DNA of 64,000 bases. Origin: Elusimicrobiota bacterium (GTDB lineage Bacteria > Elusimicrobiota > Elusimicrobia > UBA1565 > JACRDR01). The stretch covers positions 2,470-66,469 of the forward strand of contig JAPLKK010000033.1 in assembly GCA_026388115.1 (NCBI GenBank), read 5' to 3'. The notes under the pieces were generated by a model, which worked only from the letters and a program-made list of their open reading frames with translations, did not search any database and was not told the origin of the DNA. The first letter of the stretch is position 1, and every line of letters begins with the position of its first letter. Positions 33,824-53,047 of the stretch are shown piece after piece. Both the position numbers and the translations under genes were made by a program.

Positions 33824-33833
33824 GGCCTTAAAG

Positions 33834-37100: not shown

Positions 37101-37642
37101 ACAAGCAAGGCGTCGCGGTGCTCGAGAGTTTCCTCGACCACGTCTTCGCCAAGGAGCGCGGCCTGCCGTTCGAGGTCCGCGTGAAGAAGGAGCAGCTGTA
37201 CTCTCAGATCGACGGCGACTCCTCGACCTCGACGAACATCTACGCGACCCTGTCGGCGCTGTCCGGCGTGCCGATCAAGCAGTCGATCGCGATGACGGGC
37301 TCGGCCGACCAGTTCGGCAACGTCCAGCCGATCGGCGGCGTGAACTACAAGATCGAGGGCTTCTACGACATCATCACGGCGAAGCTGAAGGCGGCGGGCA
37401 AGTCGCTCGACGGGACGCAAGGCGTGATCATCCCGGCGACGAACGTGCCGGACCTCATGCTGCGCGCCGACATCGCCCAGGCCGTCAAGGACGGCAAGTT
37501 CCAGCTGTGGGCCGTCACGCACGTCAGCCAGGGCATCGAGATCCTGACGGGCGAGGCGTACTCCGAGATCGTGCGCAAGATCCAGCTCCGCGCGGACAAG
37601 GTCCGCGGCGGTGGAAAGTCCGGCGCGTCGAAGCCGGATTAA
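34106..37642 (+). CDS. LonC/LonB-like (COG1067 'lon_rel') protease with signal peptide, degenerate AAA+ Walker A and intact Ser-Lys catalytic dyad
   Basis: Start chosen at MVKNLRRSRILPIFLAASLLLSGPAGTGWAQT (signal peptide). An Ala/Pro-rich linker follows. The AAA-like module has VVGQDLALEALEFG...ITGPDGSGRET (34988-35014) with Arg in place of the Walker A Lys. The C-terminal S16 domain has QIDGDSSTS (catalytic Ser codon ~37220) ...AMTGSADQFGNVQPIGGVNYKIEGF (catalytic Lys). Confidence 0.8.
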   Translation: MVKNLRRSRILPIFLAASLLLSGPAGTGWAQTVGAAAHGAASAVGISAAAGAQVVALPQASVLPLAPVALPGALPLANPFPLSAPQTAPAASAQTAEALATALPQAAALAPAVERHPVIDLINRLQQAGVALPETIDSPADAAKLRAAAEALPAGGMRDTLVRLAVAVETPQGPARQVALDNIFENGVPPAAAAPQAVKPGLWERLAQSKLVPASLKRYAAARAEERRPKAQPVPADAYKVKTDRLRWTPDAAMLDQAAALPAPAKEVVGQDLALEALEFGLKMSGDGHNVIITGPDGSGRETATRRMLERIAPSMDTPPDLVAVTNLKQKEQPLVLELPAGTAASFKAGLNGLLSAFKKGLPALLGSGEAAAKKHEIRDAFQEAAAGAEAKFQEQVSQVKLANGKFGVMAKPQEDGEGHVTLVIAPTFNGEPLAKGDEKAKIEAGAFTAAEWEQAMKELPGVAQQVSQQYMQLARMIAAAGAQAQGAIVAIDAKTAAAAVHQLGAPLKALARPEAAHDDARHAELQKRAKLLMQEFEKTHGSKQVGPFLVVIRMAQTKEGTQPVPSLSKDGKPVGRETLMGMIFSGEMSEADWEKIQSEIETFVTEYRDGLKKLTEQLEKEHGALHAGDPPPTAAQAKASAYVDMLLADIAKNYQAFLPQREEGGNPLAALMAAKKGDPAEAYVVSVLAANQPGSGAPVIFERSPSFENLFGSVEGDGRVLMMPGAGMVKADAPGGPELKSGSYVKANGGFLVLNLMDVLREQGTWAALMRAVRAGQAEIAEGGAMGALVGANAKRHPVQAKVKVVLIGSTSLKMLLAEHDPDFARHFKAASQFESSMNMAVENIAGYLHFMRSMAETSTAGVLSMTRDAMVEVLQYAAKLAGSNEKLTARFRPLLDLMTEATYWARQAGHSEVTGSDVAAAIQKKLDFEGSARRHMQEMYSKDIFHIQTEGTAVGQTNALTVYGDFGLPTRATVTVKAGGSGVTALDDKAGLAGPFYKQGVAVLESFLDHVFAKERGLPFEVRVKKEQLYSQIDGDSSTSTNIYATLSALSGVPIKQSIAMTGSADQFGNVQPIGGVNYKIEGFYDIITAKLKAAGKSLDGTQGVIIPATNVPDLMLRADIAQAVKDGKFQLWAVTHVSQGIEILTGEAYSEIVRKIQLRADKVRGGGKSGASKPD

Positions 37643-39051
37643 TCGGCGCCGCCGAGCTTCCTCAGCTCTTTCTGCGCCGAGCGCGCGGTCTCGGGCGACG
37701 GGTTGCCCTCGAGCGCCCTGCGGAAGAACTTGACCGCATAGCCGGTATTCTTCTCCTCAAGGAGGCAGAATCCCATCCCCGCGTAGGCGTCGGCCACGTA
37801 ACGGTCGCGCAGGCCGCTCTTGATCGCCATGGTCAGCGAGTCCATGAACGCGACTCGGGCCGCGCTGAAATCCTTCTGCTGCAGGCGCAGCCCGCCGAGA
37901 AGGCTCAGGCGGCGGATCTCGCGCGGGTCCGTCGGCACCAGCAAGGCCGTGGCCTCGCCCAGTTCGTCTTGCGCCTGGGCAAACATACCCAGCCTCAAGA
38001 ACTCTTCGGCCGCGTTGAGATGCTTCTCGATGCGTTCGTCGACTGACAAGCCCGCGAGGTCCCGCTCCGGGACCCGCACCGGCACGGCAGGTGCCTTCGC
38101 GCCCCCCCAGCGGAAGGTTGCGCTCAATCGGTGCGCAGAGCCCAGGTCGCCCAGCGGTGTGAACGCGTAATCGAGCTGGAACCCGTCATGCCGCCAGCCG
38201 AAGCCGGCCGTGATGCCGATGCCGGCGTCGTTGCGGCCGTTGAATCCCACGCGCGCCGCGAAGGAAGGGGCGAGCCAGCTTTCCGCGCCGAAAGAGAATA
38301 AAGCATTGTCGGAGCGCTCCTTGATCAGGTCGAGCTCGAACGTCACGGGCAAGGCCAGGAGATTATCTACCCAGTCGAAGGAAGCTGGAGCCTCGGCGCC
38401 TGAGCGGACCTCATAAGCCGCGCCGAGCCGCAATTGGGCTGGCAGCTTCTCGTTGGCGCTCTGGAAGCGCACTGTGGAGCCCATATTTTGCAGGGCCGCC
38501 GCGAAGAGCCAGCGCCGCCTGCCCGGCGTCGCATAGAGGATGCCGCCGTCGGCCGCGTAGGCCGAGCCTGAAACATTGTCGATCGACTCGCGAATGAACT
38601 TCACCGCGCCACCGACACGCAGGCCTTCGGCCACCTCCCGGCCCAATCCAAGCCCCAGCGCCGTGTCCGTGATACCGAAAGACGCGCCCGTGCCGTCGGG
38701 GTTCGACACGGTCGTCCGGGGAACGTGTCCGTAGGTCAGGTAATTGAGCTGGAGGCCGAGGCCCTGGGGCGTGGCGAAGCCGACGTACTCCTGCGTGATC
38801 GGCGAGACATACTGATTGTGCATCAAGGTCGCCTCGTAGCGCCCGCCTCGCCCGAGCGCGGCGGGATTGTAGATGAGGGCCTCGGCGTCGGAGGCGAGCG
38901 CCGCCTGGGCCCCTCCCATGGCCACGGCGCGCGCCCCCGCGTCGAGCGAAAGGAAATCGAAGGGCTCGGCCCCCGGGCTCGCAGCCAGCGCCCGGCCGCC
39001 CGCGGCGAACGCGGCCAGAGCCACCCCGATCGCTGCCGCAGTCCTCTTCAT
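37639..39051 (-). CDS. PorV/PorQ-like (UPF0164-type) outer-membrane beta-barrel protein with C-terminal TPR-like extension
   Basis: Signal peptide, then the family-defining LDAGARAVAMGGAQAALASDAEALIYNPAAL motif and an alternating beta-barrel pattern. The last ~130 aa form TPR-like helices. The ATG overlaps the stop of the upstream giant gene (ATGA). Confidence 0.6.
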   Translation of the reverse strand: MKRTAAAIGVALAAFAAGGRALAASPGAEPFDFLSLDAGARAVAMGGAQAALASDAEALIYNPAALGRGGRYEATLMHNQYVSPITQEYVGFATPQGLGLQLNYLTYGHVPRTTVSNPDGTGASFGITDTALGLGLGREVAEGLRVGGAVKFIRESIDNVSGSAYAADGGILYATPGRRRWLFAAALQNMGSTVRFQSANEKLPAQLRLGAAYEVRSGAEAPASFDWVDNLLALPVTFELDLIKERSDNALFSFGAESWLAPSFAARVGFNGRNDAGIGITAGFGWRHDGFQLDYAFTPLGDLGSAHRLSATFRWGGAKAPAVPVRVPERDLAGLSVDERIEKHLNAAEEFLRLGMFAQAQDELGEATALLVPTDPREIRRLSLLGGLRLQQKDFSAARVAFMDSLTMAIKSGLRDRYVADAYAGMGFCLLEEKNTGYAVKFFRRALEGNPSPETARSAQKELRKLGGAD

Positions 39052-41837
39052 CGAATGATCGCGAGCACGCGAGTGGCGCCCACTTGGCCTTGGCTCGTCA
39101 TGACCGCGATGTAACCTCCCGTCGCCACGTCGCGCCCGTCCTCATTGCGGGCGTCCCACTGCAGCCTGCCGCCGGCCTCGCTCGTCATCCGCTTGACGCG
39201 CCGCCCGCTCACCGTGTAGATGGTGACGACGGCTCCCGGAGGCAGCTTATTGAAAACGATGCCGGAGTCCGGGTCCGAGGGGCTGAAGGGGCGCCCCTCG
39301 TCCGGGTTGCCGCCGTTCGGCTTGAACGGCACTGGGTAGATCTGGACCTCGTTCAGGGCGGCGTGGGCGGGCGCCGCGAAGAGGCCGAAGAGGCTGAAGT
39401 GCGGCGTGTTGCCCGTGACCCGATGGTTCACCGCGTCCACGGTCGACAAGAAATCCTTGCGCCATTGCTCGGCGACCGGGTCATAGGCCCACATCTGCAG
39501 GTCCGCGGCGCGCAGACCCGTGCCGTCTACGATGCCGTCGTTGTCGGCGTCCGGGTATGAGATCGAGACCGCCGCGGTCATGCCGTTGACGAGCGCGCTC
39601 TGCCCGTTGTCGAGCGTGATCTCGACGTAATCGTTCGCAGGCAAAGGGTCAGCGTTGAGGACGCGCGCCAGAGCGCGCACGGCCGCCGCGGTGAACGCCG
39701 GCGCGTCGAGCGGGTTATTGACCACGGTGATCGTGACCGTCGAGGAAGCGAGCGCCCCGGCGGGGATCGCCACCGAGGAGAGCTGGCCCGAGCCCGCGTC
39801 TCCCGACTGGACGGTGGTCGCGGCCCCGTTATTGACCTTCTGCTGCGTCTGGACGCTGCCGCCCCCGAGGTCCGTCTCTTGGATGTCGGGCTGGGCCGGG
39901 TCCACGCCGACCGTGATAGCCGGCGGGGTCGCGTCGGCCCGGCCCGAGAAATCCGTGGCGAGGGCGCGAAGGTCATAGGAGCCTGGGGCGAGCAGGTTCG
40001 CGTTCCAATGCACGTACCATGGGGGCGCCGAGGCCGGGTTAGGATGGTTGAACTCGGCGGCGGCCAGCGCGGCCCAGACCGCGGCCGAGGACGGCTTGTA
40101 CTGGAACAGGACCTGGCGGGTCTGCGCGACGTCCCCTAGGACGATCTGGGCCTGGACGGTGATGCGGTTGCCGATGATCTTCTTCCCCGCCTCTGGCGTC
40201 GCGATCGCGGCGCGCACGCCGTCCAAGCTGTTGAGCGCGGCCGCGGCGGCCGACACGCCGGCGTCCTGCTCCTCGACGCCGCAACGATTGACGGCCCGCA
40301 GGCTGAAGCGGTAGGCGGGGCTGGAGACCAGGACGTCGGTGAGGTAGCCCGTCGCCGACGCCGGAAGCTCGGCAAGCGGTTGCACGTAATCGACCTGGCC
40401 GGTCCCCGCGTCGTAATAGAGCTTGTAGCCCGTGACGCCCTCGGAGGGCGATGGAGACCACTGCAGACGGATCCGATCGCTCGCCAGCGACATGGCGGAG
40501 AGCCGGCCCGCCGGAAGCGGCGCCTGGGCCTGCGTGACCAATTGGACCGGCGGGGAATAGTCGCTGGCGAGGCCGTCGCCGTTGATCGCGCGGATCTTCG
40601 CGAAGGCCGGCAGGCAGGCAAGCAGGTAGTAGTCCGTGGCCGAGGTACCGATGCCTTGGAAGACGCGGTTGAACGTCGCGCCGTCGGTGGAGACTAAGAG
40701 CTCGACCGGCGTTCCGGGTGGATCGGAGCCCATCGACCAGGCGAACGCCGCGCTGGTGATCTCGACATCGGCGACGGCCAGCGCCGGAGGGTCCGCCAAG
40801 GTGTAGGCCTGCGCCGGCGCCGAGCGGAGGCCCTCCCCCGTCGCGTTCACGGCGGAGACCACGAGGCGCTGCAAAGTGTTCGGCGCCAGGCCCCCTGACA
40901 CGAACGGCAGAGCGTCCGCGACCCCCGCGGATACCGTCGGATTGGAAGCGTAATAGAGCCGGTACTGCGATGCCCCGGCGACCGCGGTCCATGTCCACAG
41001 CAGGGCGGAGTCGCCGATCGCCGAGACGGACAGGCCCATGGGCGCGGGCGGGCCCGGATCCGCCGCCGTCGCCGCCGCGCCGGCGTACGCCGTGCCGATC
41101 CCGTCGCCGTTGACCGCCCGCACGCGGTAGGAATAGGCGGTCGAGGGCGACAGCCCGGCGTCAACGGCAGCAAGACCGGCGCCGGCCCATCTCTTGACGA
41201 AGCTCGCGCCGGCAGAGCGCTCCAGCTCGAAGATCGTCCCGTCGGGATCGTCGTTGCCCGACCACGCCAAGCTCGCGGAGACCGACGAGACCGCCGTGAC
41301 GGACAATGACGACGGCGCGCCGGCGAGCGTATAGCGCGAGGCGGAGCCCGAGTTCGCCAAACCGCCCGCGTTGAACGCCTGGACATGGTACGCCCCGTAG
41401 GGGAGATTGGCCTGCAGGCCTGACTGCACCCAAGTCGTCGCGGCAGCCGCCAGGTCCCCAGAGAGGTTGGAGGTGCCCGACATCACGCGGTAGCCTGCCG
41501 CGTCCGGCGCATGCGGTGTCCAGGACCATTCGATGGAGGCGCCATCGAGCGCGCGGGCGCCGAAGGCCGACGCGGGAACGGGCGCGCTCAGGTCGTTGGT
41601 GCGCGCGGCAAGCTCGGGAGTAAAGGCGCTCTTGAGCCCGGCGCCGTTGACGGCTCGGACCTGATAGAAGTAGCTCGTGCCGGGCGCGAGCCCCGTGTCG
41701 ATGAACGCGAAGGAGCTTTGCGAGGCGAGCGTCGAAGCGGGGCCGCCGGTGGAGCGCTGGAGCTCGTAGACCGTTTGAGCGGGATTGCCTCCCGCCGCCC
41801 AGGCGAGAGCCACGCTCGTGGGCGACTGGGCCGTCAC
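39048..41837 (-). CDS. C-terminal portion of giant surface protein: Fn3-like tandem domains plus T9SS-type C-terminal sorting domain
   Basis: It continues the same alternating Fn3 module architecture as the upstream 3531-aa ORF. The terminal ~70 aa, AVVTIYTVSGRRVKRMTSEAGGRLQWDARNEDGRDVATGGYIAVMTSQGQVGATRVLAII, match the Por secretion-tail / FlgD-Ig-like CTD. It starts in a +1 frame relative to the upstream ORF's TGA. Confidence 0.8.
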   Translation of the reverse strand: MTAQSPTSVALAWAAGGNPAQTVYELQRSTGGPASTLASQSSFAFIDTGLAPGTSYFYQVRAVNGAGLKSAFTPELAARTNDLSAPVPASAFGARALDGASIEWSWTPHAPDAAGYRVMSGTSNLSGDLAAAATTWVQSGLQANLPYGAYHVQAFNAGGLANSGSASRYTLAGAPSSLSVTAVSSVSASLAWSGNDDPDGTIFELERSAGASFVKRWAGAGLAAVDAGLSPSTAYSYRVRAVNGDGIGTAYAGAAATAADPGPPAPMGLSVSAIGDSALLWTWTAVAGASQYRLYYASNPTVSAGVADALPFVSGGLAPNTLQRLVVSAVNATGEGLRSAPAQAYTLADPPALAVADVEITSAAFAWSMGSDPPGTPVELLVSTDGATFNRVFQGIGTSATDYYLLACLPAFAKIRAINGDGLASDYSPPVQLVTQAQAPLPAGRLSAMSLASDRIRLQWSPSPSEGVTGYKLYYDAGTGQVDYVQPLAELPASATGYLTDVLVSSPAYRFSLRAVNRCGVEEQDAGVSAAAAALNSLDGVRAAIATPEAGKKIIGNRITVQAQIVLGDVAQTRQVLFQYKPSSAAVWAALAAAEFNHPNPASAPPWYVHWNANLLAPGSYDLRALATDFSGRADATPPAITVGVDPAQPDIQETDLGGGSVQTQQKVNNGAATTVQSGDAGSGQLSSVAIPAGALASSTVTITVVNNPLDAPAFTAAAVRALARVLNADPLPANDYVEITLDNGQSALVNGMTAAVSISYPDADNDGIVDGTGLRAADLQMWAYDPVAEQWRKDFLSTVDAVNHRVTGNTPHFSLFGLFAAPAHAALNEVQIYPVPFKPNGGNPDEGRPFSPSDPDSGIVFNKLPPGAVVTIYTVSGRRVKRMTSEAGGRLQWDARNEDGRDVATGGYIAVMTSQGQVGATRVLAIIR

Positions 41838-44800
41838 CGCGGCGCCGCGGGCGGGCCGGGCGACGACGTCATCGTCATCCCCGAGCGGACGAAGGCCGTC
41901 GGCACCCCGTCGCCGTTGAGCGCGCGGACCTGGTAGGAGTAGGCGACGAGAGGCGAAAGCCCCGTGTCCAGGTACGTCGTCGAGCGCACATTGGCCACGA
42001 ACAGGAAGACGCCGCCGGTCGAGCGGTCCACCTCATAGAGCGTGCCCGCTGGGTTCGAATTGGCCGACCATCTCAAGCTCGCCGTCGTCGACGCCGCCGA
42101 CACGACCAAGCCCGCCGGCGCCACGGCCAAGGTGTAAGCCGATACGGGAGGCAAGGAGACGGACGCGCCCCCGTGGTTGAAAACCTGCACGGTCATCGGG
42201 CCGTACTGCGTATTCGTGGACAAGCCCGTCTGCAGCCATACGACGGTGAACGGCGGCAGATCGCCGGAAAGGTTCACGCCCGCGCTGAGGACCCGGTAGC
42301 CGGTCTCGTTCATCGAGTTGCCGGTCCAAGTCCAGCGGATGGCGTTTCGGGCGACCGCCGCGCCCGAGACGTTGGTCGGCGCGGGCGGAGCGTCCGCCGA
42401 GGGAGTGACGACGGCCGCCGCCGGGGTGTAGGCGCTGAGCACGCCGTCCGCGTTGACGGCGGCCAGGCGGTAGTAGAAGGTCGTCGCGGGACTTAAGTAT
42501 CCATCGGTCGCCGCGGTGTCCAGCGTCGTGATCCAAGGCGAGAAATTCGCGGTCGCCCCCGTCGTCGACCTCTCAAGCCGGTAAGGCGTGCCGGATGGAT
42601 TGCCCGCGGCCGACCAGGAGAACGTCGCCGAGGTCGAAGAGATGCGGACTGCGGCGAAGCCGGCCGGCGAGGCGGCAAGGGTAGCGCGCGAGGCCAGGCC
42701 AGAATCGGCCGTGCCCCCCGAATTGAAAGCCTCGACGAGGCAAGGGCCGTAGATTCGGTTGGGCGACAGGCCCGTCTGAGTCCAACTGTTCAGGCTCGGC
42801 GGGAGGTCCCCGGAGATATTCGCCGTTCCTGCCAGGACGCGATAGCCGGCGGCGACAGCCGAGTTGACCGTCCATCTCCATTGCACCGCGCTCGTGCCCA
42901 AGGCGACCCCCGCAAAACCGGTCGCCGCCGCCGGCGCGCTGGCATCCGCCGTGCGCGCGGACGTCACCGTTTGCTGAGAGGTGTCCGAGGACGGGCTGAT
43001 CGCGACTATCGAGAAGAGGTACGTCGTCGCGGGCAGCAGTCCGCCGAACGTCACCGTGGCCGTCGCGGTCGTCTGGCTCAGGAACGGGGAGCCTGCGGTG
43101 GACGCGGAGACTGTGTATCGCGTGCCTTGAGGGTTGCCGTTGGTGGACCAAGATAGCGTCACGGACGTGGTGCTCACCGCGAGGGGATAGAACATCGTGG
43201 GAGGGGCGGCCAGCGTGCACGCGGAGGCGGCCGAGCTTGAAGTGCTGACGCCGCTCCCGTTGAAGGCCTGCAGCAGGTAGGGGCCGTAGCACGTGGCCGT
43301 GGACAGCCCATCTTGCATCCACGAGGTGGCGTCCGGGAACAGGTTCCCCGAAAGATTCGTGGCGCCGGCCATCACGCGATAGCCGAGGGCGTTGGTCGCG
43401 CCGCTCGACCAACTCCACGCGATGCGGGTGGTGGCTACGCCCTTGCCGGCGAACCCCTTGGGCGCGACCGGAGGGCCTTGTGCCGCGGTGAGCGTGGAGG
43501 CCATGACGCCGAAATCCGTGAATAGGCCTTCGGCGTTCTTGGCCCGCACCTGATACCAGTACATCGTCGAAGGGTTCAGCCCCGTGTCCAAGAACGTCGC
43601 CGCCGTCGTCAGCGCGATGGAGACGAACGTCCCGCTCGTCGAGCGCTGCAGATCGAAAAGCGTCGTCACCGGATTCCCATTGGCCGACCAGCTCAAGCCG
43701 ACGGCGGACGAGGACGCCGCGACCGCGGCCAAGCCGGAAGGCGCGGCCGCGAGGGTGTAGCGGGAGGCGGGGGCGGAAGTGGCGTTGGTCGCCCCGTTGA
43801 AGGCCGTCACCCAATACGGACCGTAGAGAGTGTTGGGCGTGAGGCCCGTCTGAAGGAAGGTGGTGGTGTTGCCCGCGAGGTCGCCGGACACGTTGGCGTT
43901 CCCGGAGATGACGCGATAGCGCGTCCCGAGGACGGACTTGTCGTTCCAGGACCAGAATATGCTGCGCGTGGAGACGGGCGTGCCCGCGAAGATCGACGGC
44001 GGAGCGATGAGCGGCGGCAGCGCGACCGGGCCCGCCAGCGCGCTGTCGATGGAGTCCCGATTCCTGCCCGCGACCTTGAAATAGTAAGTGGACAACGGAG
44101 CGAGGCTCGTGTCGGTGAAACTCGTCGCCCCCGTCGTCAAGAGGGAGCGCCAAGCGTAGCTCACGCCGTCGGTGGATCGAAAGATGTCCCAAGTCGTGCC
44201 CGCGGGGTTGCCGTTCGCCGACCAGCTCAACGTCGCGCTGCTCGGCCCGACCGGAGATATCGCCAGACTCGTTGGCGGCGCCGCCGATGTGGCCCCCGGA
44301 AATTGGTAAGAATCCGCCGTACCAGTCGAATTGAAAGTGCGGAGGAAGCGGTAGTAGGTGGTGTTCGTCGATAGGCCCACCTCCAGCCAACTCGTGGCGC
44401 TTGCCGGAAGATCCCCGGAAAGGTTGACCGTGCCGGACATGACGCGATAGCCCACGACGAGAGATGCGGGGGCGGGCCAGAACCAGAGCATCGAGCCGGT
44501 CCCCATGGCCCGACCGGAAAGCCACGACGCGATGGGCGGCCCGGCTGCCTGGATCGCGAACGGTCCGGCTGTCCGCACATTCCCGGCGCGGTCCCATGCC
44601 GTGAAGATCGCTTGATTGGTCGCCCCGCAAGGCGAGATTCCATTGCAGACCATGGAAGCGGCCGAGTTGGATAGGTTCAGCAGGGCCCCGGTCAGCGTTT
44701 GCGCCGCCGTCGTCCCGTCGGCACCGGACAAGGCGGATGCCAAAGGAGCGGCCCTTGCGATCCCACCATTAGTCCACGACCCGATGTACAGTTTCCCGTT

Positions 44801-47800
44801 GAAGGCCGCGAGGCTTACCAGACTACGCGGCGACCAAGGCCAGTTTACCACCAGCCAATTCACGCCGTCGGGCGTGGTGAATAGCGGCCCGTTTGAATTG
44901 GCCGCGTACAGTTTTCCGTTGAACGCGGACAGCGCCGTGATCGTCCCCTCTACGGTGGATCCCGCCGTCCAATTGAGCCCGTCGGCGGATGAGGCGATCT
45001 GGCCGTGGTAGTCGGTCCCGGCGTACAATCGTGCGCCGAATATCGCGAGGCTGTAGACATTCCCGTTCACCGCCGGGTGCGTCCAGCTCACGCCGTCAGC
45101 CGAAGCGTAAATCCCCCCGGAGCCTCCAGCATAAAGCTGTCCGTTGAATGAGATCAACGAGAGGATCGGAGGGCCGGGCGCAGGGTTTTGGTACCAGTTG
45201 ATGCCGTCGGGAGAACTGTACAGCGCCGAAGGTACCGCGCCCGTGCTCGCCGCGTAGAGCCTGCCGTTGAATGAAGCCAGAGCGGTGATGGAGGCGACGC
45301 CGTCCCCCGCCACCGCGTAGTTCCGCGTCCAGGCGCCACCTCCGCCCGTGCTGTATACGGCGGCGCCTGCGACGGTACCCGCATAGAGCCTTCCGTTGAA
45401 AGCCGCAAAACTCCTGACCGAGCGGCCGCTCGTGACGAATTCCGTCGACCAGGCGAGCCCATCCGAGGATGAGTAGACGGCGCCGCTATTCGCGGAGCCC
45501 GCGAATATCTTTCCGTTGTAGGAAGCCAGGCTCTGCACCCCGGAATTCCAATAGGGCCAGTCCATGTTGGCGAAGTCCTGCCACGCGCTTCCAGCCGACG
45601 ACGAGCACATCACCCCGAAGCCCTGCACGAAGCCCGGGGTGTCGTGCCCGTCTCCAACGAGCGCGAGCGCGTTCGCCGAGACCGCCAGGCCGCTGACCGC
45701 GTCCTGGACGCCGATCTGCACCGTCACGGTCGAGCGCAGGTCGTTCACCTGCGATTCGCTCACGGCCGCGCCGCTCGAATTGAGGCTCGCGAAAGCCCCG
45801 GCCTGGGCGGGAGGCGTGAAGTCGGTCACGAAGCTGAACGTCGGCGACCACGGCCCGACGCTGTCGCCGCTCAGCGCCACCCGCCAGTAGTACGTGGCGG
45901 CCTCAGTGAGAGTGAAAGTAGAGAGATAGGCCGCGTCCGCCGTCGGCAGGCCGGTACTCGCCACGACTGCCGGCGTCGAGATGCCGATGACGATGCTTGC
46001 CGGCGAAAAGCCGGGGTCGTTGTTCGACACTTGAAGGAGATAGGACGCGCCGGAGGACATGCCGGCCACGACCGCCGTGCTGGCGCCGATCCAATCGAAG
46101 TTGGGCTGGAGGTTCACGTAGGCGCCGTTGGCCGGGTAGGTCGGCAGGAGGCTCACCGGCGTGAGCGCGAGGGATACGGGGCCCGCGAAATCGGTCGCGA
46201 TCCCCTCGCCATTCTTGGCCCGGACCCAGTACGTGTAGGTGATGCCGGGCAGCAGAGCGTCGGTGAACGTAGGCGCCGCGCTCGATTGGAAGACGGCGGC
46301 CAGGGTCGTGCCGGTCGAGCGTTCAAGGTCCCATATGGTATTGGGCGGATTCCCGTTGGGCGACCAGGAGAGCGTCGCGCCGCCGGCGCCGAGGGGCGAG
46401 ATCGAGAACTGGGCGGGCGCCGCCGCCAAGGTGAAGCCCGAATTGGAAGACGAGTCCGCTGTGCCGGATGAATTGAAGGCGCGCGCGAAATAGGGACCGT
46501 AGCGGGTGTTGATCGACAGTCCCGTCTGCAGCCAGCTCGTCGTCCCCGCCGGAAGGTCGCCGGAGATGCTCGTCGATCCGGACATGACCCGTAGACCGGC
46601 CGCGTTCGGCACGCTGTTGACCCAGCTCCAGCGGATCGCATCCGGGCCGGCGGCGGCATGCGCGAACAAGCCCGGGGCCGTCGGCGCCGCGAGGTTCCAG
46701 CCCGAGACGTTGACGGGAACCGGACCGGCGAAGGCGGTGAAATAGCCGTCGCCGTTCTTGGCCCGGACCTTGTAGTAATAGGTCGCCGAGAGCGTCAGGC
46801 CGCCGTCGGCGACACTCGCCGCGACGCTGGATTGAAAGACCGGCGCGTATAGCACGCCGTCGGTCGAGCGTTCCAAGTCCCAGAACGTCCCGCTCGGATT
46901 CCCGTTCGCGTCCCAGCTCACGGTCGCACTGCTCGGGCCCACGGCGGTCGCCGCGAGATTCGCGGGGACCGCCGCCAAAGTGAAGGCCGAAGCGGACCAC
47001 GAGTCGGCGGCGCCGGTGGAATTGAAGATGCGCACGAAGTACGGTCCGTACCTCGTGTTCGTCGCGAGGCCGAGCTCCAACCACACCGTCGTGCCCGGCG
47101 GCAGGTCGCCCGAGATGTTCGTCGTCCCGGACATGACGCGAAATCCGGAGATCATCGTAGCGGTGCTGACCCACGACCATTGGATCGCATCCACGCCCAC
47201 GGCGCTGTGCATGTAGTTTGCCGCAGCCGGCGGCGGCGAGGACACCACGATCGCGTAAGGTCCGGCCGCGAGCACGTTCCCCGCGAGATCGGAGACGGTG
47301 AAGATCACTTGGTTGGTGGCCGCGCAAGGCGAGGCTCCGCCGCAGGTCACCGTATTGGATGAATTGTTAAGCGCGAGACCGAAGACGCTCAGCGTCTGCG
47401 CCGCCGTCGTGCCGTCCGCGCCGCCGAGGTTGGGGAAGAGCGGATTCTTTAGGATGATCCTGCCGTCATTGGTCCCGGCGTAGAAATTGCCGGAAAACCC
47501 CGCCAAGCTCGCGATCCCGCCTGCCGCGGCGGTGCTGAAGACGAGCATCCACCGCGCTCCATCAGGCGAGGCATAGATCGCGCCGTCGGGTCCCGCGCCG
47601 GCATAGAGCTTGCCGTTGAAGACGGCGAGGCTCCGGATCGCGGTCTCTCCGGTGCCGGTCAGGACCGCGGCCCAATCGGAGCCGTTGGCCGAAGCGTAAA
47701 CCGCGCCCGCCGGCTCGGTCCCCGCGTAGAACTTGCCGTTGAAGGCGGCCAGGGTCCGGATAGCCGTCGCCCCCGGCAACGATGCCTGGCTCCAGTTCAC

Positions 47801-50800
47801 GCCGTCGACGGAGGCGAACAGGATGCCGGCGCCTCCCGCGAAGAGCCTGCCGTTGAACGCGCCGAGCGTCCCGATGGAAGGACCCGGAGCGGGCACCCGG
47901 CTCCAACCGGCGCCGTCGGACGACGCATACAGCATCGACGCGGCGCTGTTCGAGGCGTATATCCTCCCGCCGAACACCGTCAGGCTCGCGATGCCCTGAG
48001 GCCCCGCCTGCGCCGGCGCGGTGTAAGCCGCCGACCAGGTGGTCCCGTTGAACGATGAGAATATCTTCCCGGCCCCATAGGTGCCGAAGAAGAGCTTCCC
48101 ATTGAATACGGCGAAGCTTTGGATCTGCGTCTCGCCGGCGCCGCCCGGGAACGTGCTGCTGAAGACAAGATTCCAGGTGACGCCGTTCGCCGAGGCATAC
48201 AATCCCGCGTTGTTCGCGGTCGCGGCGTACAATCTCCCGTTGAAGGAGGCAAGAGCCGGCACCGATACGGCCGCGGTGCTGGAAAAGGTGGGCGTCATGT
48301 AGTAGGAATCGACCCAACTCTTGCCTGCGTCGGTCGAATAGAGGACGCCGCAGCCCCCGCTCGAACCCGGGCCGTCATGCCCGTCCCCCGCGAATGCAAG
48401 GCGGCCTTGGGTGACCGCAAGACCGGTGCCGGCGTCTTGGACGCCGAGCCGGGCCGCTCCCCCGAACCCCGGATTGATCTGCGCCTCGCCGACCAGCGTG
48501 GAGGTCCCGCTGAGACTGGCGAAGGCCGCGGACTGAACGGGCGGCGTGAAGTCCGCGTAGAACTTGGACGCCTGCGACCATGCCCCGAATGCGCCGTTGT
48601 TCGCGGCGACGCGCCAATAGTAGGTGGTGTTGTCGGTGAGGGTGAAGGTGGAGAGGTACGCCGCGTCCGCCGTCCGCACGCTCGTGCTCGTCAAGACGGC
48701 CGGAGTGGATATGCTGATCACGATATTGGACGGCGTGAAAGCCGGGTCGTTGTTGGAGACCTGGAGATAGTACGCCGACCCCGCGGGCAGAGCGGCGGCC
48801 GAGGTGGTGCTGAGCCCGATCCAATCGAAGTTGGGCTGGATGTTGACATACGATCCATCGACTGGAAACGTCGGGACGGCGGTGGAGAGCGCCGGAAGGG
48901 TGATGACCGTGGCCGTGGCCGCGAACGCGGTGAAGAAGCCGTCGCCGTTCTTGGCGCGCACTTGGTAGAAATAGGTCGATGCGGGCAGCAGGCCGTAGTC
49001 CGTATAGCTCGCCGCCGCGCTCGACTGGAAGATGCTGTTGACGTTGATGCCGTCGCTCGAACGCTCAAGGTCCCATACGGTGCCCGCCGGGTCGCCGTTC
49101 GCCGACCAGCTCAACGTCGCGCTGCTCGCTCCGGCGACGCTGCCGGCGAAGCCGGCGGGCACCGCCGCCAGCGTATAGCCGGAAACGGAAGCCGAATCCG
49201 CCGTCCCGCTCGAGGTGAAGACTCGGACGACATAGGGACCGTAGCGCGTGTTCGTCGAAAGGCCGGTCTGCAGCCAGCCGGTCGCGTCGGGCGGCAGGTC
49301 TCCCGACACGTTCGCGCTCGCGGCCATCACGCGATAGCCGGACGGGTTCGGCGAGGCGCCGGTCCAAGACCATTGGATCGAATCGACGCCCGTCGCGCGA
49401 CGGGCAAAGCTCAGGGGCGCGCTCGGCATCGATGAAATGAGGACGGCGAACGGACCGGCCGTGAGCACGTTGCCCCCCAGGTCCGAGGCCGTGAAGAGCA
49501 CCTGGTTGGTCGCGCCGCACGGCGAGACCCCGCCGCAAACGACCGAATTCGACGAGTTCACCAAGCTGAGGTTGAAGGCGCTGAGCGTCTGCGCTCCGGT
49601 CGCACCGTTCGTTCCCGTGAGCCCGGCCTGGACCGGCGTGAACTGGTATATCTTTCCGCCGTCGGTCCCGGCATACAGCTTTCCGTTCAATGCCGCCAAG
49701 CCCTCGACTCCGCCTGCCGCGGCGCTGCTGAATACGGGCATCCATGTCGCCCCGTCCGGCGAGGCATAGATCCCCCCCATGTATGTCCCGGCATACAGCT
49801 TCCCATTGAAGACAGCAAGGCTCCGGATGGAAGCTCCGCCGGTGCCGGTCAGCGCCGGAGTCCAATCGACGCCGTTCGCGGAGCCGTAGACCGCACCGCT
49901 GGGCTCCGTTCCGGCGAACAACCTGCCGTTGTACGAGGCGAGACTCCGGATCGCGGTCGTTCCCGGTATCGAGGTCTGCCCCCAGTTGACGCCGTCGGCC
50001 GAGACGAAAAGCACGCCGTTGGCGCCCGCATAGAGCCTGCCGTTGAACACCCCGAGCGTGTTGACCGACGGACCCGGAGAGCCCACCGGGCTCCAGCTCG
50101 CCCCGTCACCCGAGACATAGATCACCGAGGTCACGCTGTTCACCGCGAACAGCTTCCCGTTGAACACGACCATGCTCTCGATGCCCTGCGCCCCGGCCTG
50201 GACCGGCGAAGTGAAGACAGCCGTCCAAGTGCTTCCGTCGGGCGAGGAGAAGATCTTTCCCTTTCCGTAGGTGCCGAAGTACAGCTTTCCATTGAAGGGG
50301 GCGAAGGATTGGATCTGGGTCTCGCCGGCTCCGCCCGGGAACGTGCTGCTGAAGACCTGGGTCCAGCTGCCGCCGCTCGCCGAGACGTACAATCCCGCGT
50401 TGTTCGTGGTGCCGGCATAGGCCTTGTTGTTGAAGGCCGCAAGGGCCAACACGTGAGTCGTGCTGCTGCCGGCAAAGACGATGTTGGGGCTCGGCGAATC
50501 GATCCAAGTCCGGCCGGCATTGGTGGAATACAGGACGCCGAAGGGGCTGCTCCAGCTGGAATAGTCGTGCCCGTCCATGGTGGGCGGGCTCGGAAAGACC
50601 GCGAGGCCGGTGCCGGCGTCTTGAACGCCGATCTGCGCGGTCACGTTGGCCGCCAAGCTCTGGAGCTGAGCTTCGCCCGCCGGCGGATAGGTCGAGACGC
50701 GGGTGCCGAAACCCGCGGCCTGAGCCGGCGCGGTAAAATCGGTCTGGAATCTCGCGGGAAAGAAACCCATGCCGGTCTGGATCAACCACGGTCCGAGCAC

Positions 50801-52429
50801 CTCGGACTGCGCGTCGGCCACCGCGACGCGCCAATAGTAGGTCGTATTGTCGGTGAGCGTGAACGTCGAGCCGTACGCTCCGTCCGCCGTCGGAAGGCCG
50901 GCGGCGACGACGACGGGCGTCGCTATGCTGATCACGATGCTCGATGGCGCAAAGGCCGGGTCGTTGTTCGAGACTTGGAGGAGATACAGCGCGCCGCCCG
51001 GCAGGCCGGCGGCCGAGACCGTGCTGAGGCCGATCCAATTGAAATTCGGCTGGACGTTCAAATACGCGTAGTTGGGCGGGTAGCTCGGCGCGATCGCCGA
51101 CAGGTCCGGGGGGAGCACGCCGCTCAGGGTCAGGCGGAGCGCGCGGTACGCGTTGGCCAGCCCCGCGCCGGCCGCCGCCGAGGCGCCGATGGCGTATGCC
51201 GAGCTTCTCAGATTGGTCTGCACCTGCGCCGGCGTCAGCGTCGGCATGGCCGAGAGCATGAGGGCCGCGATGCCCGCGACCAGCGAGGAGGCGTACGACG
51301 TGCCGGCCACGGAAACGTAGCCGCCGTTGAGGCCGGTGGTGAGGATCCCGTTGACGGCGTCGCCGCCCGGAGCGACGAGGCCGTTGGCGGCGAGCTCGGG
51401 GCCGCGGGACGAATAGGCGGCCACGGCGTTGGATATGTCCGTGGCGCCCACGGGGATCACATTCGCGCAATTGGCGGGGTTGTTGACCGCGTTCCCATCG
51501 TTTCCCGCGGAGGCAACGACGGTCATTCCCGCTGCGGAGGCGGCGTTGAGCGCGTTCTGCAGCGGCGCGCCGCACGGGCCCGCCGCGCCGAGGCTGAGGT
51601 TCGCGACGACGCGACCCGTCAAAGTCTCGGCGTAGCCAAGCGCGGCGATGACGGAAGCGTCCGAAGCGACGCAAGCGCTTCCCCCGCAGGAGGAGTCGCA
51701 GGAGCCGTCGCTCGGGAATACTTTCAGCGAGACGACCTTCGCCCCCCACGAAATGCCCGCGACACCGATCCCGTTGTTGGTCGAGGCGGCGGCGACGCCC
51801 GCGACCGCCGTGCCGTGGTAACAGGCCGGAACCGGCGGGTTCTCACCGACGCAGACGCCGCTCGAGCAGTCCTGGCTATGCGACGCGTCGATCTTAGCGG
51901 CAAGGTCGGGATGGTCGGCCTGTATGCCGGAGTCGATGATCGCGATCGAGACCGGATTGGTGTTCCCCGTCTCGTAGCTCCAGGCGGCGAGCGCGGCCAC
52001 GTTGTTCAAGTACCACTGGCCGCCCAGTTGAGGGTCGTTCGGGCTCAGCAGCGCCCGGTGGGCGCGGTTGGGATGGGCGTCGAGCACGCCGGGCAAGGCC
52101 TTCAATATCTCCAGCCCATTGGCGACGGGCATGCCCTCGGGCATGAAGACGAGGTGAGCGGCGCTTCGCCCGAGCCGCCGCTGCACCAACATCCCTGCGT
52201 TCCTCAACGCTTGCGCCCGTACCTTCGCGTCCACGCCCTCATCGAAGAGAACGAGTGCCTCCCCGGCGAGCACTTCCGCATTGCGAAAGGACGGCATGCG
52301 CTCGACGCGGCGCCTATGCGCCGCCTCGGCCGAAGCGGGAACGAGAGAGACGGCCGCCAGCGACAGGAGGGCGCCGACCAGGCGACAGGCGGCGGAACGG
52401 GCTGTTCGGCGGCCACAAAATCCAAGCAT
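41834..52429 (-). CDS. N-terminal portion of giant secreted protein: signal peptide, I9-like propeptide, S8 subtilisin domain, multiple BNR/Asp-box beta-propellers, Fn3 arrays
   Basis: S8 triad in IIDSGIQ (Asp), CYHGTAVAG (His), AGTSYASS (Ser) at ~51229-52039. It has dozens of S-x-D-G-x-x-W Asp-box motifs with FNGKLYAGT blades, and repeated Fn3 modules (LAAVP...SATLSWSANGNP...WDLERS). The 3531 codons run without a stop. Confidence 0.85.
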   Translation of the reverse strand: MLGFCGRRTARSAACRLVGALLSLAAVSLVPASAEAAHRRRVERMPSFRNAEVLAGEALVLFDEGVDAKVRAQALRNAGMLVQRRLGRSAAHLVFMPEGMPVANGLEILKALPGVLDAHPNRAHRALLSPNDPQLGGQWYLNNVAALAAWSYETGNTNPVSIAIIDSGIQADHPDLAAKIDASHSQDCSSGVCVGENPPVPACYHGTAVAGVAAASTNNGIGVAGISWGAKVVSLKVFPSDGSCDSSCGGSACVASDASVIAALGYAETLTGRVVANLSLGAAGPCGAPLQNALNAASAAGMTVVASAGNDGNAVNNPANCANVIPVGATDISNAVAAYSSRGPELAANGLVAPGGDAVNGILTTGLNGGYVSVAGTSYASSLVAGIAALMLSAMPTLTPAQVQTNLRSSAYAIGASAAAGAGLANAYRALRLTLSGVLPPDLSAIAPSYPPNYAYLNVQPNFNWIGLSTVSAAGLPGGALYLLQVSNNDPAFAPSSIVISIATPVVVAAGLPTADGAYGSTFTLTDNTTYYWRVAVADAQSEVLGPWLIQTGMGFFPARFQTDFTAPAQAAGFGTRVSTYPPAGEAQLQSLAANVTAQIGVQDAGTGLAVFPSPPTMDGHDYSSWSSPFGVLYSTNAGRTWIDSPSPNIVFAGSSTTHVLALAAFNNKAYAGTTNNAGLYVSASGGSWTQVFSSTFPGGAGETQIQSFAPFNGKLYFGTYGKGKIFSSPDGSTWTAVFTSPVQAGAQGIESMVVFNGKLFAVNSVTSVIYVSGDGASWSPVGSPGPSVNTLGVFNGRLYAGANGVLFVSADGVNWGQTSIPGTTAIRSLASYNGRLFAGTEPSGAVYGSANGVDWTPALTGTGGASIRSLAVFNGKLYAGTYMGGIYASPDGATWMPVFSSAAAGGVEGLAALNGKLYAGTDGGKIYQFTPVQAGLTGTNGATGAQTLSAFNLSLVNSSNSVVCGGVSPCGATNQVLFTASDLGGNVLTAGPFAVLISSMPSAPLSFARRATGVDSIQWSWTGASPNPSGYRVMAASANVSGDLPPDATGWLQTGLSTNTRYGPYVVRVFTSSGTADSASVSGYTLAAVPAGFAGSVAGASSATLSWSANGDPAGTVWDLERSSDGINVNSIFQSSAAASYTDYGLLPASTYFYQVRAKNGDGFFTAFAATATVITLPALSTAVPTFPVDGSYVNIQPNFDWIGLSTTSAAALPAGSAYYLQVSNNDPAFTPSNIVISISTPAVLTSTSVRTADAAYLSTFTLTDNTTYYWRVAANNGAFGAWSQASKFYADFTPPVQSAAFASLSGTSTLVGEAQINPGFGGAARLGVQDAGTGLAVTQGRLAFAGDGHDGPGSSGGCGVLYSTDAGKSWVDSYYMTPTFSSTAAVSVPALASFNGRLYAATANNAGLYASANGVTWNLVFSSTFPGGAGETQIQSFAVFNGKLFFGTYGAGKIFSSFNGTTWSAAYTAPAQAGPQGIASLTVFGGRIYASNSAASMLYASSDGAGWSRVPAPGPSIGTLGAFNGRLFAGGAGILFASVDGVNWSQASLPGATAIRTLAAFNGKFYAGTEPAGAVYASANGSDWAAVLTGTGETAIRSLAVFNGKLYAGAGPDGAIYASPDGARWMLVFSTAAAGGIASLAGFSGNFYAGTNDGRIILKNPLFPNLGGADGTTAAQTLSVFGLALNNSSNTVTCGGASPCAATNQVIFTVSDLAGNVLAAGPYAIVVSSPPPAAANYMHSAVGVDAIQWSWVSTATMISGFRVMSGTTNISGDLPPGTTVWLELGLATNTRYGPYFVRIFNSTGAADSWSASAFTLAAVPANLAATAVGPSSATVSWDANGNPSGTFWDLERSTDGVLYAPVFQSSVAASVADGGLTLSATYYYKVRAKNGDGYFTAFAGPVPVNVSGWNLAAPTAPGLFAHAAAGPDAIRWSWVNSVPNAAGLRVMSGSTSISGDLPAGTTSWLQTGLSINTRYGPYFARAFNSSGTADSSSNSGFTLAAAPAQFSISPLGAGGATLSWSPNGNPPNTIWDLERSTGTTLAAVFQSSAAPTFTDALLPGITYTYWVRAKNGEGIATDFAGPVSLALTPVSLLPTYPANGAYVNLQPNFDWIGASTAVVAGMSSGASYLLQVSNNDPGFSPASIVIGISTPAVVASTGLPTADAAYLSTFTLTEAATYYWRVALSGDSVGPWSPTFSFVTDFTPPAQAGAFASLNSSGAAVSESQVNDLRSTVTVQIGVQDAVSGLAVSANALALVGDGHDTPGFVQGFGVMCSSSAGSAWQDFANMDWPYWNSGVQSLASYNGKIFAGSANSGAVYSSSDGLAWSTEFVTSGRSVRSFAAFNGRLYAGTVAGAAVYSTGGGGAWTRNYAVAGDGVASITALASFNGRLYAASTGAVPSALYSSPDGINWYQNPAPGPPILSLISFNGQLYAGGSGGIYASADGVSWTHPAVNGNVYSLAIFGARLYAGTDYHGQIASSADGLNWTAGSTVEGTITALSAFNGKLYAANSNGPLFTTPDGVNWLVVNWPWSPRSLVSLAAFNGKLYIGSWTNGGIARAAPLASALSGADGTTAAQTLTGALLNLSNSAASMVCNGISPCGATNQAIFTAWDRAGNVRTAGPFAIQAAGPPIASWLSGRAMGTGSMLWFWPAPASLVVGYRVMSGTVNLSGDLPASATSWLEVGLSTNTTYYRFLRTFNSTGTADSYQFPGATSAAPPTSLAISPVGPSSATLSWSANGNPAGTTWDIFRSTDGVSYAWRSLLTTGATSFTDTSLAPLSTYYFKVAGRNRDSIDSALAGPVALPPLIAPPSIFAGTPVSTRSIFWSWNDKSVLGTRYRVISGNANVSGDLAGNTTTFLQTGLTPNTLYGPYWVTAFNGATNATSAPASRYTLAAAPSGLAAVAASSSAVGLSWSANGNPVTTLFDLQRSTSGTFVSIALTTAATFLDTGLNPSTMYWYQVRAKNAEGLFTDFGVMASTLTAAQGPPVAPKGFAGKGVATTRIAWSWSSGATNALGYRVMAGATNLSGNLFPDATSWMQDGLSTATCYGPYLLQAFNGSGVSTSSSAASACTLAAPPTMFYPLAVSTTSVTLSWSTNGNPQGTRYTVSASTAGSPFLSQTTATATVTFGGLLPATTYLFSIVAISPSSDTSQQTVTSARTADASAPAAATGFAGVALGTSAVQWRWTVNSAVAAGYRVLAGTANISGDLPPSLNSWTQTGLSPNRIYGPCLVEAFNSGGTADSGLASRATLAASPAGFAAVRISSTSATFSWSAAGNPSGTPYRLERSTTGATANFSPWITTLDTAATDGYLSPATTFYYRLAAVNADGVLSAYTPAAAVVTPSADAPPAPTNVSGAAVARNAIRWTWTGNSMNETGYRVLSAGVNLSGDLPPFTVVWLQTGLSTNTQYGPMTVQVFNHGGASVSLPPVSAYTLAVAPAGLVVSAASTTASLRWSANSNPAGTLYEVDRSTGGVFLFVANVRSTTYLDTGLSPLVAYSYQVRALNGDGVPTAFVRSGMTMTSSPGPPAAPR

Positions 52430-52642
52430 TTGATCCCGGCTATTCGGCTGGCTCCGCGAGTGAGGTACTGGATTTCAAAAAACTACGACCTGCCGGCCGA
52501 TTTAGCGTTTTATCTGAATTTAGGCGCAACTCTTAGGTTAGCCCCGGGGCGCCACCGAATCCCGAAGAAATTCCGACTTTCCTTAATACACTAAGCAGGC
52601 AAGGCTTCGGCCGTTGCGTTGCAAAAAGGTATAAAGACCCGC

Positions 52643-53047
52643 ATGGACATCAAGATCGCTTTCCCCGGAAACAAGAAGGTCTCGGCCGAGTTCGACGGCA
52701 TGACGGTGCTGACCGATCAGCCGAAGGAGTCGGGCGGCGACGGCACGGCGCCCAGCCCCTTCCAGCTCTTCTTGGCGTCGCTGGGGACCTGCGCGGGCAT
52801 CTTCGCGCTGAGCTTCTGCAGGAAACGCGACCTCTCGACCAAGGGGCTGGAGATCGTCCAGCACGTCGATTGGGACGACACCGAGCACCGCGCCACGAAG
52901 ATCACTTTCGACGTCATCTTGCCGGACGGATTCCCCGAGAAATACCGCGACGCGCTCGTGTCGGCCGTGAACCTATGCACGGTCAAGAAGCATCTGCTCC
53001 AGCCGCCCGCGCTCATCACGCGGACGCTGACCCGCGCCGCGGGCTGA
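52643..53047 (+). CDS. OsmC/Ohr-family peroxiredoxin-like protein
   Basis: MDIKIAFPGNKKVSAEFDG...APSPFQLFLASLGTCAG...NLCTVKKHL matches OsmC-like proteins. The ATG at 52643 was chosen over the TTG extension. Confidence 0.8.
   Translation: MDIKIAFPGNKKVSAEFDGMTVLTDQPKESGGDGTAPSPFQLFLASLGTCAGIFALSFCRKRDLSTKGLEIVQHVDWDDTEHRATKITFDVILPDGFPEKYRDALVSAVNLCTVKKHLLQPPALITRTLTRAAG

Follow-up and report, generated by a model that had tools for sequence, protein, structure and literature searches.

A gene for a giant secreted subtilisin-like protease, directly followed by a gene for an outer-membrane barrel of the PorV/PorQ family, is located on the minus strand of a 64,000-nucleotide stretch of contig JAPLKK010000033.1 from an Elusimicrobiota bacterium (assembly GCA_026388115.1; this whole stretch is hereafter referred to as the window). 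On balance, the locus is best interpreted as a two-gene surface-display cassette of Elusimicrobiota that resembles the PorZ–PorQ anchoring pair of Porphyromonas gingivalis. This interpretation is built on the domain architecture and catalytic residues of the giant protein, the assignment of the barrel to its family, the recurrent pairing of the two genes, and the C-terminal domain (CTD) of the giant protein, whose family is homologous to the CTDs of type IX secretion system (T9SS) proteins. The CTD/PorV logic of the T9SS is regarded as a hallmark of the Bacteroidota, or the Fibrobacteres–Chlorobi–Bacteroidetes (FCB) superphylum; the current locus and dozens of related ones place two cargo-side components in a deep-branching, largely uncultured phylum, where the pair appears to be translationally coupled and to serve very large and diverse surface proteins. 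The components that are central to this argument are the following (aa, amino acids; ORF, open reading frame; ‘intact’ refers to the uninterrupted form of the giant gene described below):

39048..52429, minus strand: locus of the giant protease gene as written in the window, made up of ORF1 and ORF2 in different frames
52429..41834, minus strand: ORF1, 3531 aa, with an ATG start and a TGA stop (41836..41834)
41837..39048, minus strand: ORF2, 929 aa
39366..40235, minus strand: cell-proximal base of the giant protein, ~290 aa (intact 4155-4444)
39051..39365, minus strand: CTD, 105 aa, a predicted FlgD-Ig / T9SS type-A-like beta-sandwich ending in ...LAIIR
37639..39051, minus strand: PorV/PorQ-family 14-strand outer-membrane barrel with a C-terminal TPR domain, 470 aa

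The CTD represents a large family. An exhaustive phmmer search returned 2,275 cluster representatives at E <= 1e-3, including 310 at E <= 1e-10, in which the match is located at the extreme C-terminus, the length of the proteins varying between several hundred aa and 5,913 aa; almost every one of the best 150 matches extends to the final residue. Passenger domains are unrelated. All relatives bearing a taxon name are assigned to Elusimicrobiota or simply to ‘bacterium’, and 116 of 121 CTDs end in [IV][IVL]R. When 40 relatives were sampled (TIGR04183 and CHU_C being counted at E <= 0.01), the C-terminus of PorZ matched all 40, TIGR04183 matched 38 (best E 5e-7) and FlgD_ig 37, with CHU_C and PF18962 matching 20 and 19, respectively. 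A profile of these 40 CTDs, searched against the PDB, retrieved PorZ first (5M11, residues 669-758, E 4e-8), which itself ends in ...FAVIR, and PorU second (6ZA2, residues 1083-1154, E 9e-4). Judged by these sequence comparisons, the family is homologous to the type-A CTDs of the T9SS and is closest to those of PorZ and PorU. The CTD of the window itself, which carries a 14-residue insert relative to PorZ (the KPNGGNPDEGRPFSPSDPDSG region), finds its best profile match in the C-terminal 70 residues of PorZ (31.5 bits on that model) and matches the CHU_C/type B family weakly (13.9 bits). Its AlphaFold2 (AF2) model, which is reliable in its core only, returned PorZ (5m11, E 8.8e-6) as the best Foldseek match, with FlgD, PorU and the RemA/NucA CTDs at E > 1e-2.

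The start codon of the barrel gene overlaps the stop codon of the giant gene by four nucleotides (ATGA). Its 470-aa product, which is named ‘PorV/PorQ family protein [Elusimicrobia bacterium]’ at NCBI, scores 151.3 bits against model NF033709 (cut-off 90) over model positions 4-325 of 326, its homologue in locus L003 reaching 168.4 bits, and it scores higher on the PorQ model (105.5 bits) than on the PorV model (50 bits). The AF2 model of the barrel (predicted local distance difference test score, pLDDT, 89.2) displays 14 strands followed by TPR helices at aa 337-465. The top Foldseek match to this model is PorV from the Flavobacterium T9SS-RemA-CTD complex (8gl6_F, E 1.6e-14, target-normalised TM-score, i.e., template modelling score, 0.63), with FadL and TodX ranking next; a phmmer search of the barrel against PDB sequences returned nothing useful. 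A barrel with an even number of strands has its C-terminus on the periplasmic side, and the TPR domain is therefore predicted to be periplasmic.

The pairing of a CTD gene with a barrel gene was found to recur, the barrel gene following the CTD gene in L003, L005, L006/L007, L011, L012 and the P0142 locus. In L003, L005 (a protein of 5,077 aa with Kelch repeats) and L006/L007 (4,360 aa, FG-GAP/Kelch), a CTD giant is located directly upstream of the barrel gene with the same 4-nt overlap. The genes of P0175 (5,913 aa, beta-helix) and P0174 (2,868 aa) likewise overlap by 4 nt with a barrel-TPR gene downstream. The same overlap joins a TPR-less barrel gene to that of an 827-aa NosD-type protein, a pairing that is recognized from gene order and not from a CTD, while in L008 the CTD gene and the barrel gene are near each other without being adjacent. 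The passengers in the paired loci are unrelated (Kelch, beta-helix, NosD). The base that precedes the CTD, for which a weak match to Big_3_3 was the only family match, is 45-59% identical to the same region in L003, L005, L006 and L008, and is common to CTD-bearing giant proteins with differing passenger domains; base, CTD and barrel thus travel together while the passengers vary. To the same effect, 80 metagenome loci were fetched with a barrel profile seeded by an 11-sequence alignment (a 37-sequence alignment being too diverse), of which 72 had enough upstream sequence. In 52 of these 72 testable loci, and in 34 of the 37 among closer homologues, a CTD-ending ORF (E < 1e-5) on the strand of the barrel gene terminates no more than 150 nt upstream of it; the overlap is exactly 4 nt in 22 metagenome loci. 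An ...[IV][IVL]R ending followed by a barrel-TPR gene offers a rule by which surface-displayed giants in Elusimicrobiota may be recognized.

The first-pass annotation of this stretch had described one gene of about 13.4 kb, at 39048-52429, encoding 4460 aa. These coordinates and this length are exact (3531 + 929 aa), and the architecture is indeed continuous over both ORFs, but the ORFs lie in different frames, overlapping by 4 nt (GTGA), and are split by a 268-bp deletion, so that they form one domain architecture yet not one gene as the window is written. The window has a G+C content of 67% and spurious ORFs are abundant; the coding signature (G+C of 0.85-0.86 at third and <=0.60 at second codon positions) is full-length only in the minus-strand frames of ORF1 and ORF2. 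The C-terminal end of ORF1 is an inter-module linker (...SSPGPPAAPR*), and ORF2 lacks an N-terminus of its own, opening in the middle of an Fn3 module (VTAQSPTSVALAW...). The junction is placed as follows:

41839..41840, minus strand: deletion junction, where 268 bp present at positions 2401-2668 of Logan contig L001 are absent from the window

Contig L001 (SRR25046533, 11,291 bp) is 100% identical to window positions 33217..44239 except for these 268 extra bp, which restore a single uninterrupted ORF of 4,549 aa; an intact allele certainly exists. The 89 codons gained in this way specify an entire A-type Fn3 module (intact 3531-3619, SVFSGLALSPTSALWTWTAH...TLAAVPGTLA), which scores 104.6 bits on the A-type hidden Markov model (HMM), on par with its siblings, and with which the strict A/B alternation of modules is regained. 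Furthermore, the orthologue in L005 is collinear with the intact protein, including the restored module (52% identity over aa 2637-4549). The 470-aa barrel protein is encoded with identical sequence on two Logan contigs, and was the only protein to be matched in exact-sequence look-ups, which returned no match for ORF1, the release factor or the 921-aa annotated form of ORF2.

The deletion thus removes one A-type module and shifts the frame, and may be real or may have arisen as an error in the deposited assembly. The chance that it is real and has inactivated the gene, which would then be a pseudogene or a variant within the population with ORF2 silent, and that it is not an error in a metagenome-assembled genome (MAG), is put at a little less than even. 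The deposited NCBI record contains the same split, ORF2 being the separate 921-aa hypothetical protein MCX5787554.1 (NTX64_03455) on a contig of 125,525 bp; the length of 268 bp is not a multiple of three, and the ends of the deletion share only ~1 nt of microhomology, leaving no shared k-mer to mislead an assembler. On the other hand, SRR25046533 carries the intact allele between flanks that are otherwise 100% identical, a consensus or assembly error may explain the split instead, and both ORFs are free of other stops or shifts, so that any inactivation would have to be very recent. In the window allele as written, the N-terminal product would lack its anchor. Collapse of the Fn3 repeats, which had been raised as a risk for this region, is not the cause, since the gene-internal DNA repeats are only 70-78% identical and the deletion ends share ~1 nt. 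The longest exact repeat in the gene, and the sole one of >=31 nt, measures 35 bp and is located in B-type Fn3 modules at 49094-49128 and 44210-44244 (minus strand); it is because of this repeat that k-mer assemblies break at 44244, the end of L001. Programmed ribosomal frameshifting at the GTGA overlap, which would fuse ORF1 to ORF2 and to which the 4-nt overlap and the continuing architecture might point, is so improbable that it was rejected: no slippery heptamer is present at ...CCG CGG TGA CGG..., a product joined in this way would be short of an entire A-type module and would no longer alternate strictly between A and B, and the intact allele and the collinear orthologue account for the split as a deletion. 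Users of the deposited MAG should be aware that it splits this gene through a deletion which an independent assembly does not contain. Of note, the first 1,000 aa of the giant protein have their closest homologue in P0004 (900 aa, from an Elusimicrobia MAG; 48% identity), the sequence of which turns arginine-rich and out-of-frame-looking in mid-propeller; frameshifts or mis-assembly thus seem to affect this giant-gene family in further MAG records as well.

The N-terminal head of the giant protein comprises the following features:

52322..52429, minus strand: Sec-type signal peptide, aa 1-36, read from the sequence and ending in ...PASAEA
52067..52276, minus strand: pro-domain, aa 52-121, fervidolysin N-pro-like
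51179..51952, minus strand: peptidase S8 catalytic domain, aa 160-417
51932-51934, minus strand: codon of D166
51815-51817, minus strand: codon of H205
51500-51502, minus strand: codon of N310 (oxyanion)
51296-51298, minus strand: codon of S378

Signal peptide cleavage is predicted to occur just ahead of AHRRRVE, and the A-x-A / AH.RR.E junction is conserved in the Elusimicrobia homologues P0004 and P0005. The pro-domain, previously annotated as an I9 propeptide, did not match Inhibitor_I9 (PF05922) even at E <= 10; PF22148 (Fervidolysin_NPro-like) matches instead, with a score that equals its cut-off (21.0 bits against 21). The S8 domain matches PF00082 (142.7 bits against a cut-off of 21.8), and its catalytic residues are complete and in order, i.e., D166 (IIDSG), H205 (YHGT), N310 (AGND) and S378 (GTSYA), aligning with those of the solved subtilases 7w2a and 1dbi. 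The complete subtilisin triad and the signal peptide of the first-pass annotation are thus upheld.

The nearest relatives of the protease head are Elusimicrobia S8 peptidases, among them forms of ~557 aa (P0005, P0006, P0009; loci L009, L010) that consist only of signal peptide, pro-domain, S8 domain and CTD. Their S8 domains are 39-46% identical to that of the giant protein, and the junction of signal peptide and pro-domain is shared (P0004, P0005). They differ from it in having no stalk, an insert-less FlgD_ig CTD and no adjoining PorV-like gene; a gene beside P0005, encoding 415 aa with a faint TPR match, was considered as such a barrel and rejected. Their CTDs end in ...AVIR (P0005, P0006) or ...AVIH (P0009), the former ending being almost the same as the ...FAVIR of P. 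gingivalis PorZ.

Between the protease and the base, the giant protein forms a long stalk in which beta-propeller supermodules alternate with series of Fn3 modules (delimited with internal HMMs):

49430..51088, minus strand: supermodule 1, aa 448-1000, matching DUF6242 and composed of an Fn3-like/Ig-like pre-module (448-611), a 7-bladed propeller (~625-936) and a 66-aa post-module (935-1000)
48896..49426, minus strand: two Fn3 modules (A then B), aa 1002-1178, also matching PF00041
47237..48874, minus strand: supermodule 2 (pre-module, 7-bladed propeller, post-module), aa 1186-1731
46163..47233, minus strand: four Fn3 modules, aa 1733-2089
44540..46144, minus strand: supermodule 3 (pre-module, 7-bladed propeller, post-module), aa 2096-2630
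41840..44539, minus strand: ten alternating A/B Fn3 modules, aa 2631-3530, up to the break
40236..41837, minus strand: six further Fn3 modules (intact 3621-4154), the first without its leading strand in the window

Each supermodule consists of a 155-aa Fn3-like/Ig-like pre-module, seven blades of ~38 residues and a 66-aa post-module, and supermodules 1 and 2 are 72.7% identical at the DNA level over 1.5 kb. The three predicted propellers together possess 21 blades, carrying 18 copies of the motif [ST]x[DNSG][GA]xxW, a form with one residue fewer than the canonical Asp-box S-x-D-x-G-x-T-W. In every propeller, the translation shows one additional strand with the motif before blade one (LYSTNAGRTW and its equivalents), an arrangement that would fit an N-to-C ‘velcro’ closure of the propeller. 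The propellers match PF19755 (DUF6242) with 129.3 bits against a cut-off of 29, matches to the BamI_Bacteroidota and F510_1955 propeller families lie below cut-off, and PF02012 (BNR) gave no match on the propellers; the only natural PDB protein matched by the propeller sequence is the DUF6242-domain protein 9his_H. The at least eight blocks of Asp-box blades that had been noted correspond to 21 predicted blades in three propellers, with the motif in its short form, and the Pfam BNR model is silent on them. PF00041 scores 197.3 bits on ORF1 and 112.5 bits on ORF2, and canonical Fn3 modules in A/B alternation number 22 in the window and 23 in the intact protein (2 + 4 + 17), in agreement with the approximately 20 alternating modules reported earlier; the three Fn3-like pre-propeller modules come in addition. 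The overall designation as a secreted cell-surface protease or adhesin with a single multidomain architecture is likewise supported. A 443-aa WD40 beta-propeller protein is encoded elsewhere in the window (27800-29131, minus strand); its many matches to eukaryote-type WD40 families are below cut-offs, and its sequence is unrelated to the propellers of the giant protein.

In P. gingivalis, the barrels that tether PorU and PorZ to the outside of the cell are PorV and PorQ (PMC5562754), and the CTD of PorZ, unlike cargo CTDs, is not cleaved (PMC8545088). By analogy with the PorZ–PorQ and PorU–PorV pairs, the giant protein would be exported over the inner membrane by Sec and would then cross the outer membrane through a channel, after which its uncleaved CTD may dock non-covalently on the cognate barrel and so keep the protein on the outer membrane; this docking and retention is proposed because the CTD is closest to those of PorZ and PorU, while the partner gene is closest to PorQ and PorV. 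The Fn3 modules and propellers would then project the N-terminal protease away from the cell over ~100 nm if extended, assuming ~3.5 nm per Fn3 module, and the TPR domain of the barrel could contact periplasmic partners during or after export. The barrel gene would be translationally coupled to the giant gene. Candidate roles for the protease include extracellular protein scavenging, contact-dependent attack on other cells and self-processing of the stalk.

The proposed pair shares with PorZ–PorQ and PorU–PorV (PDB 5M11, 6ZA2, 8GL6) a CTD, predicted here to be a 7-strand beta-sandwich, on a protein that, as proposed here, sits on a PorV/PorQ-family barrel, and with PorZ in particular the combination of 7-bladed propellers with a CTD; the ...VIR ending of PorZ recurs in the CTD family. 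It is distinguished from the P. gingivalis pairs by its coupled one-to-one genes, a barrel with a C-terminal TPR domain and a phylum outside Bacteroidota, and from PorZ by the 14-residue CTD insert and a passenger of ~4,400 aa with a protease head. In Flavobacterium johnsoniae, SprB and SprF are said to form a comparable pair, in which a cargo with a type B CTD reportedly has a cognate PorP/SprF-like barrel. The likeness lies in a giant surface protein gene beside a dedicated outer-membrane barrel gene that provides, or here would provide, anchoring via the CTD; the difference lies in the barrel, which is of the PorP/SprF and not the PorV/PorQ type, and in the type B CTD, CHU_C matching only weakly here. 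Omnitrophota and Elusimicrobia are also described as having giant genes, the products of which in some cases start with an S8 peptidase domain (West-Roberts et al., bioRxiv 10.1101/2023.11.21.568195). These resemble the current protein in being multi-thousand-residue predicted surface proteins, yet they are much larger (length cut of the public set >=10,624 aa) and are described beside type II secretion-like loci, PorV and type IX secretion being unmentioned in that description.

Several observations weigh against the reading of the locus as an anchoring cassette. The barrel scores given above fall below the equivalog cut-offs of both PorQ (NF033711, 220) and PorV (NF033710, 250). The CTD of the window is itself below every curated cut-off (TIGR04183 17.8 against 23; FlgD_ig 23.6 against 27), and PF18962 gave no match to it at E <= 10. 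Failure at the thresholds of such models had been named by the first-pass annotation as what would count against its terminal Por-secretion-tail/FlgD-Ig domain, and for this copy TIGR04183 does fail; the domain is nonetheless present and its family homologous to type-A CTDs, so that what curated thresholds do not establish is the T9SS label for this single sequence. Furthermore, the AF2 model of the CTD is of moderate quality (mean pLDDT 61.5, ~80-87 in the core), the N-terminal half of the modelled region being unreliable. Beyond the PorV/PorQ-family gene, the 64-kb window contains no SprA/Sov-, PorU- or PorK/L/M/N-like gene, and T9SSs have been reported only in Bacteroidota/FCB (PMC4793230, PMC11205867, PMC12398890), both of which bear on the step of outer-membrane translocation. 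The short S8-CTD proteases without an adjacent barrel imply that the CTD cannot rely solely on a cis-encoded partner, and suggest that machinery in trans also recognizes CTDs, which would be in keeping with a full T9SS-like system. The giant gene is disrupted in the window, and this allele may be non-functional. Finally, in Treponema pallidum the same architecture of barrel and TPR domain has been interpreted as a FadL-type importer (PMC8407342).

The last observation bears on the proposal that the 470-aa protein imports hydrophobic nutrients as a barrel of the FadL/UPF0164 type, and that the position of its gene beside the giant gene is without mechanistic meaning. FadL and TodX are the next-best structural matches, homologues of the barrel match PF03687 (UPF0164), and the FadL-like proteins of T. 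pallidum likewise consist of a 14-strand barrel followed by an alpha-helical, periplasmic TPR extension, the difference being that these have been interpreted as importers (PMC8407342). The best sequence model is nevertheless PorV/PorQ, the best fold match is a PorV bound to a CTD substrate, and the pairing with CTD-ending ORFs of unrelated passengers in most testable metagenome loci, with the exact overlap in 22, renders an importer improbable. A less remote, though still unlikely, explanation is that the giant protein is an ordinary T9SS cargo, for which a full type IX system is encoded elsewhere in the genome; the CTD would then be a transient sorting signal, bound by a PorV-type shuttle and cleaved off by a PorU-like sortase, with release of the protein or its covalent attachment to a glycolipid of the cell surface. 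The CTD-family homology to TIGR04183/PF18962, the PorV/PorQ membership and PorV-like fold of the adjoining gene product, and the shared machinery in trans suggested by CTD proteins of the phylum without an adjacent barrel are all consistent with this possibility. Against it, no core T9SS gene was found in the window or in those fetched loci for which called genes are listed (Sov/SprA, the PorU sortase and PorKLMN of P. gingivalis being missing from the window), a literature search returned no paper linking the T9SS with Elusimicrobia and none relevant on FlgD-Ig CTDs, the closest CTDs are the two uncleaved ones, i.e., those of PorZ and PorU, and one-to-one coupling is unlike P. gingivalis, where one shuttle PorV serves ~30 cargos (PMC5562754). 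The earlier suggestion of a T9SS-like export route therefore holds in part: the coupled PorV/PorQ-family barrel and the CTD-family homology agree with it, while the sub-threshold CTD, the lack of a core gene in the window and the non-FCB phylum do not. The preferred reading, an anchoring pair of a giant protein and its own barrel, can tentatively be carried further to a CTD-dependent display that operates in Elusimicrobiota without the T9SS core of Bacteroidota, in which the PorQ-like barrel with its periplasmic TPR arm receives and permanently anchors its own giant and which is possibly energised by the nearby ExbB-ExbD-TonB module; this version is regarded as doubtful. If it is correct, the T9SS attachment complex would have a minimal or ancestral relative in a non-FCB phylum. 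Should these genomes encode the remaining T9SS, the system would have a wider phylogenetic range than is known; should they lack it, the pair would define a simpler anchoring or secretion route, which bears on the evolution of the T9SS attachment complex.

The wider surroundings of the cassette are those of an ordinary chromosome (purM, purH, carAB, znuABC, thymidine kinase, PHO4, a LonC-like protease, RF2, Lnt and SecA). A profile search of genome contigs returned one true relative, L003, an Elusimicrobia groundwater MAG that is the closest relative at genome level, and every named homologue comes from an Elusimicrobia/Elusimicrobiota MAG. Upstream of the giant gene, the following features were delimited:

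52430..52594, no strand assigned: AT-richer intergenic region, presumed to hold the promoter, between the giant gene and a divergent OsmC-like gene
52595..53047, plus strand: OsmC-like gene, divergent from the giant gene

A scan for the sigma-70 consensus found no site, so that a promoter in 52430..52594 is presumed from position, and terminator-like matches were at background level only. About 3 kb upstream of the giant gene lies a minus-strand block (55576-59041) that starts with HEAT repeats (57395-59041), followed by MotA/ExbB (56781-57458), ExbD (56379-56777) and TonB_C (55576-56379). The same HEAT-HEAT-ExbB-ExbD-TonB block is found directly upstream of the 5,913-aa CTD giant in L011 (2412-5847); block and cassette could be functionally connected, or the arrangement could be no more than conserved synteny.

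On the other side, a plus-strand gene for a LonB/LonC-like AAA+ protease (33968-37642, 1,224 aa) is convergent with the barrel gene, the 3' ends overlapping by 4 nt, and this arrangement is also present in the Logan contigs L001 and L002. Farther away, at window positions 3861-8024, a 184-aa ORF with only a partial Secretin domain (30.8 bits) is followed by a stretch of lower G+C content (0.57 at 6001-8000 against ~0.67 elsewhere in the window) that carries genes for an AAA_14/DUF4143 ATPase (5566-6768) and an NOV_C protein (7269-8024, minus strand). This region looks like an inserted island beside a truncated secretin gene.

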